From Escherichia phage vB_EcoS-606R9: a DNA stretch of 21,284 bases. Where the stretch lies: sequence record ON470581, one strand, 5' to 3'. The position numbers and the translations under genes were made by a program. Positions 9,871 to 21,284 of this stretch are shown here, in pieces. Position 1 is the stretch's first letter. Each line of letters starts with the position of its first letter. The notes under the pieces were generated by a model that worked only from the letters and a program-made list of their open reading frames with translations, did not search any database and was not told where the DNA came from.

Positions 9871-9968
9871 CACATTTGTCAGCTTCCGGATGGGAGCTGG
9901 TGTCAGGGCTGGATAGCTCATTACTCCATCTATTCACAATTACGCAAATTTTTAAGGAATATTTAATT

Positions 9969-11108
9969 ATGGCTGGAAATACCCTGACCGGGTTGATCCC
10001 GACTATTTATACCGCCCTGGATGTTGTATCCCGTGAGCAGGTAGGTTTTATCCCTGCGGTAGCAAAAAACGCAAAAGCTGACGCCGCAGCAAAAGATCAG
10101 ACGGTAACCGCGCCAGTTGCGCCTGAGGCGAAAACCGAAGATATCGTACCGGGGCCGTCAGCTCCGAATACCGGTGATCAAAATATTGGCACTGTTGATG
10201 TAAAAATTACTAAATCCAAAATGGCACCGGTTAAATGGAATGGTGAAGAACAACTGGCTCTTGGTCCTTCAGGGACTTACAACACCATTCTGGCTGATCA
10301 GTTCAAGCAGGCTTTTCGCGCCCTTGCAAACGAGGTTGAGGCTGATCTTGGTGCGTTGTATTTCGGTGCTTCCCGCGCCGTGGGAACCGCAGGGACAACG
10401 CCGTTTGGTGTTAAAGATGATCTTTCTGATGCTGCTCTGGCTCGTCAGGTTCTGGAGGATAACGGCGCACCGACAACCGATCTGCAGATGGTGCTTGGCT
10501 CCACTGCCATTGCTAATTTGCGCGGAAAACAGTCTGTATTGTTTAAAGTGAATGAATCCGGCACTGAACAGCTACTGCGTGAGGGCGTGTTGGGGCGTCT
10601 GGAGGGATTCAATATTCACAGTTCGGCAGGTGTGAAACGAGCGCCAAAGGTTGCTGCAACTGGTTATCTCGTGAATGGAGAGAAAAAAGAAGGCGATGTT
10701 CTTATTTCCATTGATACTGGTTCGGGGAGTATTTCTGCAGGTCAGATTGTTACGTTCGCTGGTGATCCGAATCAGTATGTTGTGGCAGCAGCGACCAGCA
10801 ATCTGATTACTCTTGCAGCGCCCGGACTGCGTCAGGATCTGGCCGATGATACTGCCATCACAGTTGTTGGGGCCTTTACTGCAAATATGGCGTTTGATCG
10901 CAACGCGTTTCTGCTGGCATCCCGTACTCCGGCAATGCCGGAAGGTGGCGATAATGCTGATGATGTAATGAATGTTACGGACCCGATTTCAGGGATTACG
11001 TTCCAGATTGCACTGTATCGTCAGTATCGCCAGGTGCGCTATGAAGTTGGACTGGCATGGGGTGTTTCATCAGTGAAGCCGGCACATGGTTGTCTGATTC
11101 TTGGTTAA
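9969..11108 (+). CDS. Major capsid protein (putative)
   Basis: 379 aa from ATG 9969 with AAGGA about 10 nt upstream (track ORF begins at TTG 9876 with no RBS); follows the scaffold gene and is followed by a strong terminator hairpin, typical of a highly expressed coat gene. Confidence 0.65.
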   Translation: MAGNTLTGLIPTIYTALDVVSREQVGFIPAVAKNAKADAAAKDQTVTAPVAPEAKTEDIVPGPSAPNTGDQNIGTVDVKITKSKMAPVKWNGEEQLALGPSGTYNTILADQFKQAFRALANEVEADLGALYFGASRAVGTAGTTPFGVKDDLSDAALARQVLEDNGAPTTDLQMVLGSTAIANLRGKQSVLFKVNESGTEQLLREGVLGRLEGFNIHSSAGVKRAPKVAATGYLVNGEKKEGDVLISIDTGSGSISAGQIVTFAGDPNQYVVAAATSNLITLAAPGLRQDLADDTAITVVGAFTANMAFDRNAFLLASRTPAMPEGGDNADDVMNVTDPISGITFQIALYRQYRQVRYEVGLAWGVSSVKPAHGCLILG

Positions 11109-11118
11109 ACATTCAAAC

Positions 11119-11140
11119 GGGGCTTCGGCCCCATTTTTAA
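11119..11140 (+). terminator. Intrinsic terminator-like hairpin after the major capsid gene
   Basis: GGGGC-TTCG-GCCCC (5-bp all-GC stem, UUCG tetraloop) followed by ATTTTTAA, 11 nt after the capsid stop. Confidence 0.55.
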
Positions 11141-11150
11141 TGGGGGGCAT

Positions 11151-11327
11151 ATGGCCGGATTAACTAAAGAGCAAAGAGCACAGCGTGAAGCCGCACAAAA
11201 AACGCAAATTGAGTTAGTGGTTATGGTGACCGATTATCAGATGTTTCCCGGCGCACCAACTATCGCTAATGTTCATCCTGATGAAGTTGACAACTGGAAG
11301 GCTATGGGCTGGAAAACTCAGGAGTAA
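11151..11327 (+). CDS. Small hypothetical protein (58 aa), not in the supplied ORF track
   Basis: ATG 11151 to TAA 11325-11327, translating MAGLTKEQRAQREAAQKTQIELVVMVTDYQMFPGAPTIANVHPDEVDNWKAMGWKTQE; fills the gap between the capsid terminator and the next gene, same strand. Coding status unproven. Confidence 0.3.
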   Translation: MAGLTKEQRAQREAAQKTQIELVVMVTDYQMFPGAPTIANVHPDEVDNWKAMGWKTQE

Positions 11328-11330
11328 CAC

Positions 11331-13916: not shown

Positions 13917-14378
13917 ATGAGGTTATGGATGTTTATTCTTAATCAGAAAATTATCATCGGTGGAGAACGCTGGTTTACGCCAATGAAGGACTTAAAACCT
14001 GTAGACGGGTTAAAACTGTTGGTGGCAAGCAGCGATAACGATCAGTATCGCTCCCGTAATGCATTAATCCGTCGTCACATTGAGAAAATGGATGCCAGTT
14101 TGCACGTCGGAACGAAGGAGTTTGATATTTCAAAGGTTTCCGAGGTAGATTCTGTTGATGATTTACTCATTGATAATGCTGCTCGTTATCTGCTGAAAGA
14201 CTGGAAAGGGGTTGGTGAACTGGTTAATGGTGCTGAGGTTGCACTGGAATATACGCCAGAACGAGGGATCGCGCTGCTTAAGCAGAATCCAGAGTTGTAC
14301 TGGCAGATCCTTGCAGAAGCAGCCAGCATCGCCCAGGGTAAAGAGCAGCAGAAGCAGGATACGATAAAAAAGCCATAG
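13917..14378 (+). CDS. G: Tail assembly chaperone (lambda gpG analogue)
   Basis: 153-aa acidic ORF between the major tail and tape measure genes, ending in the slippery heptamer A_AAA_AAG just before its TAG stop. Downstream ATGs at 13929 and 13983 are alternative starts. Confidence 0.65.
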   Translation: MRLWMFILNQKIIIGGERWFTPMKDLKPVDGLKLLVASSDNDQYRSRNALIRRHIEKMDASLHVGTKEFDISKVSEVDSVDDLLIDNAARYLLKDWKGVGELVNGAEVALEYTPERGIALLKQNPELYWQILAEAASIAQGKEQQKQDTIKKP

Positions 14379-14686
14379 CCGCCCAGCGGTGGTTATCGGA
14401 GTTCGGGGGAGAAAGGGGGGAAAAGGCAAGATGGAAGCGAGAAAAACTCAGGTTGCCACCGATACCGGAACCAGAAATAGACCCGGTGCTTAAGGAATTG
14501 TTGTACGCCTATTCGGTAATATCCCGTGCCCGACGTTATGCTGGAATGACCGGGGTGCCTTTGCCTTTATCTCTGACAGAGATAAATGAATATTTAGCCA
14601 CTCATCCGGTATTGATTGAGCGCGATGAGTTTGAAGCAGTGATCTTTGCACTGGATGACCAGTATTTTCAGGATCAGTGTGTGTAG
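13917..14686 (+). CDS. GT: Tail assembly chaperone G-T fusion made by programmed -1 ribosomal frameshift (predicted)
   Basis: The -1 frame relative to G is open from 14342 to the stop at 14684-14686; the slippery site A_AAA_AAG (14366-14372) lies in the overlap 2 codons before the G stop. Predicted fusion about 256 aa. The conserved G/G-T arrangement of lambda-like tails is established knowledge. Confidence 0.6.
14366..14372 (+). promoter_or_regulatory. -1 programmed frameshift slippery heptamer A_AAA_AAG
   Basis: In the G frame the codons are AAA (14367-14369) and AAG (14370-14372), preceded by A at 14366; this is the same heptamer as the E. coli dnaX frameshift site. Confidence 0.6.
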
Positions 14687-14810
14687 TTGTTAATTACGTA
14701 CACTCTGTTACAGAGATGTGATGGTGTCTTTAATTAAATCGATGATGCTCCTGGAGAAAAGCATTGCGTGGCCTCGTAATCGCTATATCTACTATTATGT
14801 CGCCTGAAAC

Positions 14811-14838
14811 CCACTTCGGTGGGCTTTTTGTTGTCTGG
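14811..14838 (+). terminator. Terminator-like hairpin just upstream of the tape measure gene
   Basis: CCCAC-TTCG-GTGGG (5-bp stem, UUCG tetraloop) followed by CTTTTTGTTGT; lies in the 163-nt spacer between the G-T stop (14686) and the tape measure start (14850). Confidence 0.45.
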
Positions 14839-14849
14839 AGTTTTAATAA

Positions 14850-17348
14850 ATGGCAGAGCAAACCTCGCGTCTCGCAATAATTATTGATAGCACTGGAGCA
14901 AAAAATAATGCTGACAATCTGACCTCCTCATTAGTCAAAATGACGCAGGCCGGGGAAACTGCTGCAAATAGCGCAGGGAAAGTGACTAAGGCAACAGAAG
15001 ATGAGAAGAACGCGCTCGCAAAATTAAAAGTAGCTATTGATCCAGTTGGTGCCGCAATTGATACTGTCGGTCGACGCTATTCTGAATTAAAGAAATTTTT
15101 CGATAAAGGGCTTATTGATAAAGAAGAATATGAATTTCTTGTCCGTAAACTTAATGAAACCACAGAGGAATTGAGCGGGGTTGCGCAAGCGCAGAGAGAA
15201 GCCGAGAAGGCCGGAAAACTTGCTGCCGCCCAGCAGGAAGCGCAGGCTCAGGCCTTTCAAAGAATGCTGGACAAGATCGACCCTCTGGCTGCGGCGCTAA
15301 GAAATCTTGAACAACAGCAGGATGAACTTAATGCTGCGTTTGCATCCGGGAAAATAAATGGTTCTCAGTTTGAGAATTATAGCCGAAAAATACAGGAAAC
15401 ACGGCGAGAGCTTACCGGAGAGGCTCAGGCAGAGCGAGAAGCAGCAAAAGCGCATGATGAACAGGTTGCTGCTTTGCAACGTCTGATTGCTCAACTTGAC
15501 CCTGTCGGAACTGCTTTTAATCGTCTGGTAGAACAACAGAAACAGCTCAATGAAGCAAAAGCTAAGGGGATGCTCTCTCCTGAAATGTATGAGGAACTTT
15601 CTGGAAAACTTCGTGCTATGCGGAGTGAGCTTGAGGTTACTCAATCTCAATTAAGCAAAACCGGAATGTCGGCAAAACAAACGGCTTTTGCTATGCGCAT
15701 GTTGCCTGCACAAATGACGGATATTGTTGTTGGGTTGTCCACTGGTCAGTCGCCTTTTATGGTGTTAATGCAGCAGGGCGGCCAGCTAAAAGATATGTTC
15801 GGTGGGATTGGCCCGGCGATCAAAGGTGTTGGTTCTTATGTGCTGGGATTAATTAATCCTTTTACCCTGGCCGCAGCAGCCGTTGGCGTCTTAGGGCTGG
15901 CTTACTATAAAGGCTCTCAGGAGCAGGACGAATTTAATAAATCTCTTATTCTTACCGGAAATCAGTTGGGGACAACCAGCGGGCAATTGGCCGATATAGC
16001 TCAACGTGCCGGGAATGCGGCTGATTCGACAACTGGCGCTGCGGCGGCAGTATTAAACCAGCTTGTGCGTTCGGGAAAGGTAGCGAGCAGTTCGCTGGAG
16101 CAAGTGACGACAGCGATAGTAAAAACGAGCGAAGTAACAGGAATATCAACCGAACAACTGGTTAATGACTTCAATGAAATTGCAAAGGATCCTGTCAGTG
16201 CCATATCAAAACTTAATGATCAGTACCATTTTCTGACAATTGCGACTTATAACCAGATTAAGGCGCTACAGGATGAAGGGAACCAGCAGGAGGCCGCCCG
16301 CATTGCGACAGAAGCATACTCATCCTCAATGATCCAGCGCACCAACCAGATTAAAGAAAATCTTGGTTATCTTGAGACTGCATGGAAAGCTGTCGCAGAC
16401 TCCGCAAAATGGGCATGGGATTCCATGCTGGACATTGGCCGTGAGGCCTCCCTTGATCAAAAAATCTCAGATGTTCTCCGTCAAATTGATGAAATAGAAA
16501 AAAATACCCGACCCGGAGTTTTCGGGTTAGGTGGCATTGGAGATGGCGGAGCTCAAAATAAAAGGCTGGCACGATTAAAGCAGCAATTGGGCGTACTTCA
16601 AGCAGAAAAAATTGCTCAGGACGTCCTAAATTCATCAATAAACGATTACAACAAGCGACAACAGGAAGGAATTGAACTCAGACAGAGAGCAGATGCCTTT
16701 TCAAAACAATATCAGACCCGGGAGCAGCAGAGAGCTAGTGAACTTGCAAAACTGGAAAAGCTAAAGAGTCAGTATTCAAAGGAAGAATATAATAATTTTA
16801 TCGCTCAAATAAATGAGCGTTATAAAGATCCAAAGCAACCAAAGGCGAAAGGTTATTCGGATGATGCTGCCCAACGAATGATTGATCATCTGAATCAACA
16901 GAATGCGTTACTAAGTTCACAAACTGAATTAACCGTTAAATTAAGTTCCTCTGAACAGGAACTGGTTAAGTGGCGTCAGCAGATTGCCGACCTGGAGTCA
17001 CGACCGTCATCGAAATTAACCCAGGATCAGAAATCGCTTCTCTTACACCGGGAAGAAATAACCGCGTTGATGGAGAAAAATGTTGCGATTGAAAAAAATA
17101 ACAGGCTAATCAAGGAATCCGCCGAAATAGCTGCATGGCGTGATTTATTGCAGGCTTCGATTGATAATCGTCAACAGGGGTATGATATTCAGATTGCTGG
17201 TTATGGGGTTGGCGATAAAAATCAGCAACGCCAGCAGGAATTACTGCGGATTGAACGTGAATATAACAATCAGCGTCTGCAACTTGAACGTGACTATGCA
17301 GATAAATCCCGTGGGATGTCAAATCATGTTTTTCAGGAGAAAATGTAG
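14850..17348 (+). CDS. H: Tail tape measure protein, N-terminal 832 codons ending at an in-frame TAG
   Basis: Long Ala/Gln/Glu-rich coiled-coil ORF with an internal hydrophobic glycine-rich segment, directly after G/G-T and before the M, L, K, I, J homologues. The ORF ends at TAG 17346-17348, but the same frame stays open for a further 245 codons to 18083. Confidence 0.75.
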
Positions 17349-18083
17349 GCTCTGAATGATGCTCTGGAACGAGAAAAAGAAATTGTCAGACAGAAAAACG
17401 AGCAGCTCGATATTCAGGCAGGAGACTGGGTTAGTGGTGCCTCCCAGGGATTCAATAACTGGCTGGATGACACTAAGGATATCAGTGAGCAGATAAAATC
17501 AACCACGACTCAGATGTTTGATGGAATGACCGATGCGCTGGGTGATTTTGTCACGACAGGCAAGGCAAATTTTCGTTCTTTCGCTACTTCCGTGATTTCG
17601 GATCTTAGTCGAATAGCATTAAAGGCTTCAATTACTGGGATTTTCGACAGCATTAGTAACAGTTCTTCGGGGGGGATTTTAGGAACTATCGGGAGTGCTA
17701 TTAGTAAATTTATTCCGAATGCAAAGGGCGGTGTTTATGAGTCTCCGTCATTGAACACGTATTCGAACGGTATTTATGATTCCCCGCAATTTTTTGCTTT
17801 TGCAAAAGGGGCTGGTGTTTTTGGTGAGGCTGGTCCGGAAGCCATTATGCCATTAACACGAACATCCGATGGTTCTCTTGGTGTCAGAGCTATTAATAGT
17901 AAAAGTGGTAATGGAGGCGGAGATATTACCTATGCCCCTGTATACCAAATCACTATTCAAAATGACGGCCAGAATGGAGAGATTGGCCCTCAGGCAATAA
18001 AAGCACTTATGGGGATGGTTGATCAGCGGGTGCAGGGCAATCTGTTAAATATGCGACGTGATGGGGGAATGTTAAGTGGCTAA
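17349..18083 (+). CDS. H: Tail tape measure protein, C-terminal segment downstream of the in-frame TAG (same frame, no independent start signal seen)
   Basis: Frame is continuous with 14850..17348 (both coordinates are multiples of 3); encodes ...MFDGMTDALGDFVTTGKANFRSFATSVISDLSRIALKA..., which resembles the lambda gpH C-terminal region from memory. First ATG is at 17514 with no obvious SD. The stop overlaps the M start. Confidence 0.6.
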   Translation, partial: ALNDALEREKEIVRQKNEQLDIQAGDWVSGASQGFNNWLDDTKDISEQIKSTTTQMFDGMTDALGDFVTTGKANFRSFATSVISDLSRIALKASITGIFDSISNSSSGGILGTIGSAISKFIPNAKGGVYESPSLNTYSNGIYDSPQFFAFAKGAGVFGEAGPEAIMPLTRTSDGSLGVRAINSKSGNGGGDITYAPVYQITIQNDGQNGEIGPQAIKALMGMVDQRVQGNLLNMRRDGGMLSG

Positions 18084-19117: not shown

Positions 19118-19825
19118 ATGACAGNNNNNNNNNNNNNNNNNNNNNNNNNNNNNNNNNNNNNNTCGGAAGGGGAAAGATATTTTCCCTGCGTGAATATCTC
19201 CGGTGAGCCGGAGGAGTATTTCCGGATGTCGCCGGAGGACTGGCTGCGGGCAGAGATGCAGGGTGAGATTGTGGCGCTGGTCCACAGCCACCCCGGTGGT
19301 ATGCCCTGGCTGAGTGAGACCGACCGGCGGCTGCAGGTGCAGAGTGATTTGCCGTGGTGGCTGGTTTGCCGGGGAGCGATTCACAAGTTCCGCTGTGTGC
19401 CACATCTTTCCGGGCGGCGCTTTGAGCACGGGGTGACGGACTGTTACACGCTGTTCCGGGATGCTTACCATCTGGCGGGGATTGAGATGCCGGATTTTCA
19501 TCGCGAGGATGACTGGTGGCGTAACGGTCAGAATCTCTATCTGGATAATCTGGAGGCCACAGGGCTATATCAGGTGCCGTTGTCAGCGGCGCAGCCGGGC
19601 GATGTGCTGCTGTGCTGTTTTGGTTCATCGGTGCCGAATCATGCCGCCATTTACTGTGGTGACAGCGAGCTGCTGCACCATATTCCTGAACAACTGAGTA
19701 AACGAGAGAGGTACACCGACAAATGGCAGCGACGCACACACTCCCTCTGGCGTCACCGGGCATGGCACGCATCTGCCTTTACGGGGATTTGCAACGATTT
19801 GGCCGCCGCATCGACCTTCGAGTGA
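19118..19825 (+). CDS. K: Tail tip assembly protein K (JAB/MPN plus NlpC/P60-like), interrupted near the N-terminus by an assembly gap
   Basis: JAMM-type motif HSHPGGMPWLSETD and an NlpC/P60-like Cys/His region (GVTDCYTLFRDAYH ... PNHAAIY); the last 103 nt overlap gene I, as lambda K/I do. ATG 19118 is 3 nt after the L stop; ATG 19226 would give a 199-aa product and is an alternative start. The true length of the N-gap at 19125-19162 is unknown. Confidence 0.8.
   Translation: MTXXXXXXXXXXXXXSEGERYFPCVNISGEPEEYFRMSPEDWLRAEMQGEIVALVHSHPGGMPWLSETDRRLQVQSDLPWWLVCRGAIHKFRCVPHLSGRRFEHGVTDCYTLFRDAYHLAGIEMPDFHREDDWWRNGQNLYLDNLEATGLYQVPLSAAQPGDVLLCCFGSSVPNHAAIYCGDSELLHHIPEQLSKRERYTDKWQRRTHSLWRHRAWHASAFTGICNDLAAASTFE
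19125..19162. other. Assembly gap (run of 38 N)
   Basis: Literal N characters in the sequence; a scaffolding or masked gap, not biology. Confidence 0.99.
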
Positions 19826-20430: not shown

Positions 20431-21284
20431 ATGGGTAAAGGCAGNNNNNNNNNNTCCCGCGCGAAGCGAAGGACAACCTGAAATCATCCCAGATGCTGAG
20501 CGTGATAGACGCCATCAGTGAAGGGCCGATTGAAGGTCCGGTGGATGGATTAAAAAGCGTGCTGCTGAACAGTACGCCGGTGCTGGACAGTGAGGGGAAT
20601 ACCAATATCTCCGGCGTCACGGTGGTGTTCCGGGCAGGTGAGCAGGAGCAGTCACCGCCGGAGGGATTTGAATCCTCCGGTTCCGAGACGGTGCTGGGTA
20701 CGGAAGTGAAATATGAAACGCCGATCACCCGGACCATCACGTCGGCAAACATCGACCGTCTGCGCTTTACCTTCGGTGTACAGGCACTGGTGGAAACCAC
20801 CTCAAAGGGAGACAGGAATCCGTCGGAAGTCCGCCTGCTGGTTCAGATACAGCGTAACGGTGGCTGGGTGACGGAAAAAGACATCACCATTAAGGGCAAA
20901 ACCACCTCGCAGTATCTGGCCTCGGTGGTGGTGGGTAACCTGCCGCCGCGCCCGTTTAATATCCGGATGCGCAGGATGACGCCGGACAGCACCACAGACC
21001 AGCTGCAGAACAAAACGCTCTGGTCGTCATACACCGAGATCATCGATGTGAAACAGTGCTACCCGAACACGGCACTGGTCGGCGTACAGGTGGACTCGGA
21101 GCAGTTCGGCAGCCAGCAGGTGAGCCGTAATTATCATCTTCGCGGGCGCATTCTGCAGGTGCCGTCGAACTATAACCCGCAGACGCGACAATACAGCGGT
21201 ATCTGGGACGGAACGTTAAAACCAGCATACAGCAACAACATGGCCTGGTGTCTGTGGGATATGCTGACCCACCCGCGCTACGGC
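20431..21284 (+). CDS. J: Tip attachment / central tail fibre protein J, N-terminal part (continues beyond the window; reading frame broken by a 10-N gap)
   Basis: ATG 20431 with GTGAGGA SD; encodes MGKG..., then after the gap PREAKDNLKSSQMLSVIDAISEGPIEGPVDGLKSVLLNSTPVLD... through ...MAWCLWDMLTHPRYG, near-identical to the lambda gpJ N-terminus from memory. Frame before and after the gap differs, so the gap length is arbitrary. Confidence 0.9.
20445..20454. other. Assembly gap (run of 10 N) inside the 5' end of J
   Basis: Literal N characters; the apparent frame change across it is an assembly artefact. Confidence 0.99.

Follow-up and report, generated by a model that had tools for sequence, protein, structure and literature searches.

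A spacer between the tail chaperone and tape measure genes of the Rac prophage family is probably a nearly empty cargo slot that ends in a predicted terminator

The tail operon described here raises the question of why a tail assembly chaperone gene and a tape measure gene should be separated by a long stretch of DNA. The window, by which we mean the whole stretch of 21,284 nt of Escherichia phage vB_EcoS-606R9 (sequence record ON470581) that was analysed, has a gap of 163 nt (14687-14849) between the stop codon of the G-T fusion (TAG 14684-14686) and the start codon of the tape measure gene (ATG 14850). The spacer is truly long, as an earlier note on this DNA had stated, because the T and H genes of lambda overlap by 8 nt; it is also long beside the 39-45 nt found in relatives that carry no cargo at this junction. 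The earlier note had offered three readings of the spacer, namely a regulatory insert, a remnant of a deleted gene or a small RNA. We propose that the spacer is probably the Rac-lineage, nearly empty allele of a slot for cargo (moron) genes between G-T and the tape measure gene. The slot would consist of about 123 nt of lineage-specific sequence (14687-14809), most likely inert filler and possibly the stub of a former cassette, and of a conserved right-hand boundary (14810-14849), in which a factor-independent terminator hairpin with its T-run would be directly followed by the ribosome-binding site of the tape measure gene.

Sequence comparison places the window in the Rac prophage family. Several induced E. 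coli phages (vB_EcoS-611R4 and relatives) have the interval 14380-14900, inside which the spacer lies, at 100% identity. Over the same interval the identity is 98.3% with Salmonella phage SPF_0923, and also 98.3% with ydaY-ynaA of the Rac cryptic prophage in K-12. The spacer alone is 97.6% identical to its K-12 counterpart (NC_000913.3, about 1426289-1426453), inside which the K-12 record has no annotation. E. coli strain 190 contains an intact prophage with the same 521-nt interval at 100% identity, and the presence of racR, ydaS/T, recET, ralR and intR next to ttcA shows this prophage to be Rac proper. The spacer, at 80% or more of its length, is present in 1045 of 5426 complete E. coli genomes. 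The strain 190 prophage (L322, NZ_CP020520.1 2631000-2652000) also has trkG and a ynaK fragment between its lysis cassette and head genes, and a gene for a Q-like antiterminator together with tRNA-Thr and tRNA-Gly genes upstream of the lysis genes. Two runs of N in the window (19125-19162 and 20445-20454) are assembly gaps or masked bases.

The gene upstream of the spacer is a tail assembly chaperone. G (13917-14378, + strand) matches PHROG 313, 'tail assembly chaperone', with an E-value of 8.2e-47, and is the homologue of ydaY of K-12 Rac, as RefSeq names the homologous coding sequence. The 3' end of G reads A_AAA_AAG at 14366-14372 (+ strand), a -1 slippery heptamer that lies across the G-frame codons ATA AAA AAG CCA TAG. 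The -1 frame stays open over 14342-14686, and the T segment that it encodes (14372-14686, + strand) matches PHROG 1189 (E 5.6e-36) as well as the C-terminal part of PHROG 313 (profile positions 173-245 of 258); homologues of T were seen in Klebsiella and Erwinia phages. The homology, the slippery site shortly before the stop codon of G and the extension in the -1 frame are together the features of a G/G-T chaperone with a programmed -1 frameshift, and the earlier reading of this gene as G-T is sound. The C-terminal tail of T beyond the conserved ...FALDD motif differs with the allele of the slot (L066 2204, L004 2828), and the left recombination boundary of the slot would therefore lie inside T. 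At the first of these loci the tail is stopped early, ending in ...DDQYVS, and in its closest relatives it ends in ...DDQYVSQSKTVDGILIN.

To gather relatives of this junction, we searched with the N-terminus of the tape measure protein, starting from one sequence and going on to alignments headed by distant members; identity in this region goes down to about 35%. The resulting 301 loci contain 104 distinct junctions, in which the T stop codon and the tape measure ATG are between 39 and 3360 nt apart. Three distinct junctions have spacers of 39-45 nt, 18 are of the Rac type (163-165 nt) and 83 have spacers of 500 nt or more. The cargo of E. coli prophages includes an Ail/Lom outer-membrane protein of 178-185 aa (PF06316, E 6e-27), found in prophages whose T and tape measure proteins are 75% and 97% identical to those of the window. 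Other cargo consists of a KilA-N protein, membrane proteins with a zinc ribbon and several lipoprotein-like ORFs. The comparison identifies the junction as a general, highly variable cargo site across siphophage tail modules of E. coli, Klebsiella and Erwinia. Relative to the cargo-less junctions the Rac spacer is extra DNA, and to that extent the word 'insert' in the earlier note is justified.

The right edge of the slot is far more regular. A hairpin followed by a T-run that ends 20-27 nt before the tape measure ATG was detected at 102 of the 104 distinct junctions, which are related by descent and do not count as independent events, and the other two have single-mismatch versions of it. The detector required 5 bp or more in the stem, 3 or more of them GC pairs, and then a T-run, and it fired in 3.4% of 9804 other windows of 75 nt from the same 301 loci. 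More than 35 distinct stems occupy this position, including CCCAC/GTGGG (the stem of the window), CCCGC/GCGGG, CCCAG/CTGGG, CCTCGC paired with GCGGGG or GCGAGG, GCCCGG/CCGGGT, AGCCGC/GCGGCT and GCCCCGC/GCGGGGC. From the count, the variety of stems and the low background we infer that the hairpin is a conserved terminator at the right edge of the slot: many sequences with one structure at one distance are strong evidence that a terminator-type element is maintained. This claim of conservation rests on the detection of a hairpin in each sequence and on the background control and not on a formal covariation statistic; in a MAFFT alignment of 36 junctions analysed with RNAalifold, the 5' arms of the stems fall out of structural register. 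The hairpin is absent from HK639, a very distant relative. For the comparison of the G-T/H junction with lambda and relatives, which the earlier note had suggested, the outcome is an overlap in lambda and, in the relatives of the window, a variable gap with a predicted terminator at a fixed place.

The hairpin CCCAC-TTCG-GTGGG that the earlier note had reported is present in the window at 14810-14823 and is of the predicted intrinsic-terminator type, the whole element with its tail CTTTTTGTTGT covering 14810-14834 (+ strand) in a terminator scan. The stem has 5 bp with four GC pairs and a short loop, a U-rich tract lies directly 3' of it, and the structure is kept among the relatives despite changes in sequence. 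The tail reads CTTTTTGTTG, with five T after one C, where other alleles have runs of T6-T8. Taken alone the hairpin of the window is a weak or marginal match (dG -9.1 kcal/mol including flanking A/U pairs, z -1.2), and it is the comparison with relatives that makes it highly non-random. The window differs from K-12, which carries the majority allele, in three places only. The loop is TTCG and not TTCGCG, a deletion of 2 nt; position 14824 is C and not T, so that the T6 run of K-12 is interrupted; and position 14836 is T and not A, which gives TGGAG in place of the AGGAG of K-12. The K-12 hairpin has a dG of -15 kcal/mol. All three differences fall within 14815-14840, and each weakens either the predicted terminator or the Shine-Dalgarno sequence.

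The ribosome-binding site also varies little. The Shine-Dalgarno sequence GGAG (14837-14840) and the start codon at 14850 fall in 14837-14852 (+ strand), and the stretch that leads from the T-run up to the tape measure ATG (TTTTTTATTGCCCGGAGAAAGGTAAATG and its variants) is nearly invariant across relatives; 40 of 49 haplotypes read AGGAG at the Shine-Dalgarno sequence. The tape measure gene itself (14850-18083, + strand) is interrupted in the window by an amber codon at 17346-17348, where CAG has become TAG; both SPF_0923 and E. coli strain 190 have CAG. The amber codon splits a gene of 3234 nt into ORFs of 832 aa (14850-17348) and 189 aa (17514-18083), which together correspond to a single 3234-nt CDS in SPF_0923. 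One Rac-type IMG/VR contig (among L324-L388) has a tape measure gene interrupted 14 nt past the ATG (...ATGGCAGAGCAAACTGGATTTGCCCC...), which is probably the breakpoint of an insertion or rearrangement. A scaffold of 227 nt from Gleimia coleocanis (L009, NZ_DS999569.1) has 100% protein identity to a part of the E. coli tape measure gene; this is most likely a contamination of the actinomycete assembly.

Known phages provide a precedent for such a slot. The first named moron sits between the tail chaperone and the tape measure gene, and the word 'moron' was coined for this slot (PMC3594210). In HK97 the slot lies between the chaperone (gp13/gp14) and the tape measure protein (gp16) and holds gene 15, whose product gp15 is a superinfection-exclusion protein (PMC3594210). 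The HK97 record gives the order G-T stop codon, gp15, an annotated putative terminator (ACCCGCTATCAAGCGGGTTTTTTTT) and, 12 nt later, the tape measure ATG. The window, like HK97, has a terminator-type hairpin with a T-run, a short ribosome-binding site and the tape measure ATG in this order, although the two tail modules are only distantly related. HK97 has a real gene of 62 aa in the slot, whereas the window has no supportable gene or promoter there. The Ail/Lom alleles of E. coli (for example strain 357900, L004) are much closer to the window: they share the flanking G-T and tape measure genes and the sequence from the T-run to the ribosome-binding site, and their terminator is equally far from the ATG. 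They differ in holding a cassette of 746-796 nt, which has no detectable similarity to the 123-nt body of the window, and in having a different and stronger hairpin (-18.3 kcal/mol).

Our favoured reading suggests a simple working scheme. In the lysogen the terminator would stop upstream transcription from entering the tape measure and distal tail genes; such transcription would come from cargo promoters in the relatives and would be stray transcription in the window. During lytic growth, RNA polymerase modified by Q would read through the terminator. Such read-through is expected because the intact Rac prophage of strain 190 has, shortly before its lysis cassette, a gene for a Q-like antiterminator (PHROG 753, E 2e-77). 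The scheme resembles the late operons of lambdoid phages, in which terminators are read through by Q-modified polymerase and in which, as in the window, a hairpin with a T-run lies inside an essential late operon; for the phage of the window the read-through is predicted from the Q-like gene of intact Rac. Since the T-run and the ribosome-binding site are conserved, they would probably also serve as a homology anchor for the swapping of cargo.

Insulation from cargo promoters cannot be the sole role of the terminator, since it is kept in relatives that have no cargo. There the junction consists of the terminator alone, with unrelated stems in an IMG/VR contig (L164, 39 nt) and in Erwinia phage Gungnir39 (45 nt). 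These two junctions suggest a different role, in which the hairpin is a feature of the late transcript: a leaky attenuator, or a stabiliser of the 3' end, that favours the message for the major tail protein, G and G-T over that for the tape measure and distal tail proteins. The latter are needed in far fewer copies, and cargo would merely exploit a site that was already there. The fixed distance of the hairpin from the tape measure ATG fits such a role. So do the terminators annotated downstream of the major tail gene in the HK639 record, and so does a second strong terminator-like hairpin of the window, 11 nt after an ORF of 410 aa that ends at 11108 and is probably the major capsid gene. On the other hand, the Q-like antiterminator of intact Rac should make late transcription resistant to terminators of this kind. 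Most relatives moreover have strong canonical terminators, with GC-rich stems of 7-10 bp and 6-8 T, as would be expected of a full stop more than of a tuned leak, and lambda obtains these protein ratios although its genes overlap and its T/H junction lacks a terminator. We consider a late-transcript role somewhat improbable; it is nevertheless a serious rival, because the terminator survives without cargo and because of the second hairpin, and the insulating and late-transcript roles are not mutually exclusive.

A related proposal sees in the terminator an ancestral regulatory element that selection has kept in the tail module. It would act as an attenuator or as an element of RNA stability or translation and would set the dosage of the tape measure and distal tail proteins, and morons would have colonised the site later. 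We regard this as unlikely. In a lesser variant of it, the 123-nt Rac body could itself be functional as a processed RNA or a micro-protein.

The body of the spacer (14687-14809) is specific to the lineage, and none of our searches detected a function in it. When the body was compared with the lom cassette, with the T tails of relatives and with 92 kb of the relatives' cargo, neither blastn, tblastx nor local alignment under two scoring schemes gave any similarity beyond shuffle nulls. Consensus-only scanning of 14600-14850 gave no + strand promoter of the sigma-70 type; the lom cassette, too, lacks a + strand promoter in the consensus scan. Rfam gave no match at gathering thresholds and only matches with E>1 at permissive settings, and the folding z-scores (-1.07 on the + strand, -1.65 on the - strand) are within the range of shuffled sequences. 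The GC content of the spacer (0.38-0.46) lies inside the range of its flanks (0.36-0.61). The 3' hairpin is supported as a conserved terminator-type element; in the body, no promoter, gene or RNA structure could be supported.

The low variation within the body was also considered as a sign of constraint. The body has 5 variable sites in 123 nt and is identical in the window and K-12, the micro-ORF included. This reading was rejected: the coding sequence next to the body is just as poor in variation, the adjoining 3' end of T and parts of the tape measure gene being equally uniform, and the low diversity more probably reflects recent shared descent of the cassette than constraint. Derivation of the body from the lom cassette or from other cargo was rejected as well, the similarity staying within shuffle nulls. 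Two likenesses that had been noticed by eye were not significant, one between the in-frame continuation past the T stop codon (...RCDGVFN) and the longer T tail of relatives (...TVDGILIN), and one between TAGT..AATTAC..ACAC and the left flank of the lom type. The body is most simply taken as inert filler, and may be the stub of a former cargo cassette. The suggestion of a remnant of a deleted gene is in this sense plausible for the first ~120 nt of the spacer, although these show no similarity to any cargo or protein family.

The spacer does contain the micro-ORF that had been pointed out previously, one base to the left of the position first given. It has 28 codons and a stop codon (14721-14807, + strand; ATG 14721, TGA 14805-14807), or 29 aa if translation begins at GTG 14718. 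If it encoded a protein of 28 residues, the peptide would be the counterpart, as a minimal moron payload, of the 62-aa gp15 of HK97; the slot hosts small proteins elsewhere, and the stop codon lies 2 nt ahead of the terminator stem, the usual order of gene and terminator that is also seen in HK97. The variation among haplotypes speaks against this, the ATG being changed to ATA or ATT in 8 of 49 and a TGG codon being changed to TGA in one. The micro-ORF is preceded only by a weak GAG and by no promoter consensus, the peptide has no hydrophobic segment, and neither the micro-ORF nor three other small ORFs matched PHROG or NCBIfam profiles. A degenerate back-translation of eleven of its codons retrieved 66 IMG/VR viral contigs, 65 of which are nucleotide-identical and one of which has a single synonymous change; no diverged homologue was found among these copies, and the identical copies show no variation at wobble positions. 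The micro-ORF is thus present but unsupported as a gene, and that it encodes a protein is very unlikely.

We judge it equally improbable that the spacer gives rise to a small RNA ending at the terminator, whether from a promoter of its own or by processing of the 3' end of the G-T message. Such an RNA would be reasonable in its outline, with about 140 nt to the T-run, a terminal hairpin and U-tail like the 3' ends of sRNAs, and a tail of 6 U in the K-12 allele. The promoter scan, which found no + strand consensus in or just upstream of the spacer, and the Rfam search argue against it, and the fold of the whole spacer is no better than that of shuffled sequences. The K-12 tables that were searched, of 3' ends and of sRNA predictions based on RIL-seq, have no entry for ydaY/ynaA on the + strand. 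The supplementary tables of K-12 Term-seq list no + strand 3' end between ydaY and ynaA. Since K-12 does not express the Rac late operon, these absences weigh little, against the terminator as much as against a small RNA. Of the three readings offered at the outset, the small RNA is the one that these results disfavour.

The palindrome CTCTGT-T-ACAGAG is likewise real and lies at 14703-14715, one base further left than first described. Its perfect 6-bp arms would suit the binding site of a dimeric regulator, yet its frequency is that of chance: perfect inverted repeats of its class number 24 in the window and 18.6 +/- 4.2 in shuffled sequences, and about 0.18 are expected in any 163 nt. The window has no second copy, even with two mismatches allowed, and one arm is broken (A14714C) in 2 of 49 haplotypes. 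The palindrome is accordingly unsupported as a site, and a role in binding a regulator is the least likely of the readings considered here.

Judged as a moron in the sense of HK97 and HK022, the spacer is extra DNA between genes that are adjacent in related phages, and it has a terminator of its own. It has no promoter in the consensus scan, no supportable protein-coding gene and no distinct base composition, and we therefore file it as an empty or vestigial slot with a terminator and not as a moron. The ydaY-ynaA interval of K-12 Rac, where the tape measure gene is truncated and the upstream late genes are deleted, and its counterparts in about a fifth of complete E. coli genomes could be annotated in this way, and it is unnecessary to search them for small genes or small RNAs. 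The combination of a positionally fixed terminator and a near-invariant ribosome-binding site offers a simple landmark by which the cargo of prophages, for example Lom-type porins, lipoproteins and membrane Zn-ribbon proteins, can be located. The value of these results is practical and lies in annotation; they leave the view of how Rac-type phages work unchanged.

The second terminator-like hairpin of the window reads GGGGC-TTCG-GCCCC followed by ATTTTT and is located at 11119-11132, past the stop codon of the 410-aa ORF (9876-11108). It sits in a gap of its own (11109-11330), and about 200 nt follow it, where SPF_0923 annotates an ORF of 58 aa. This gap may be a second slot of the kind found between the chaperone and the tape measure gene.
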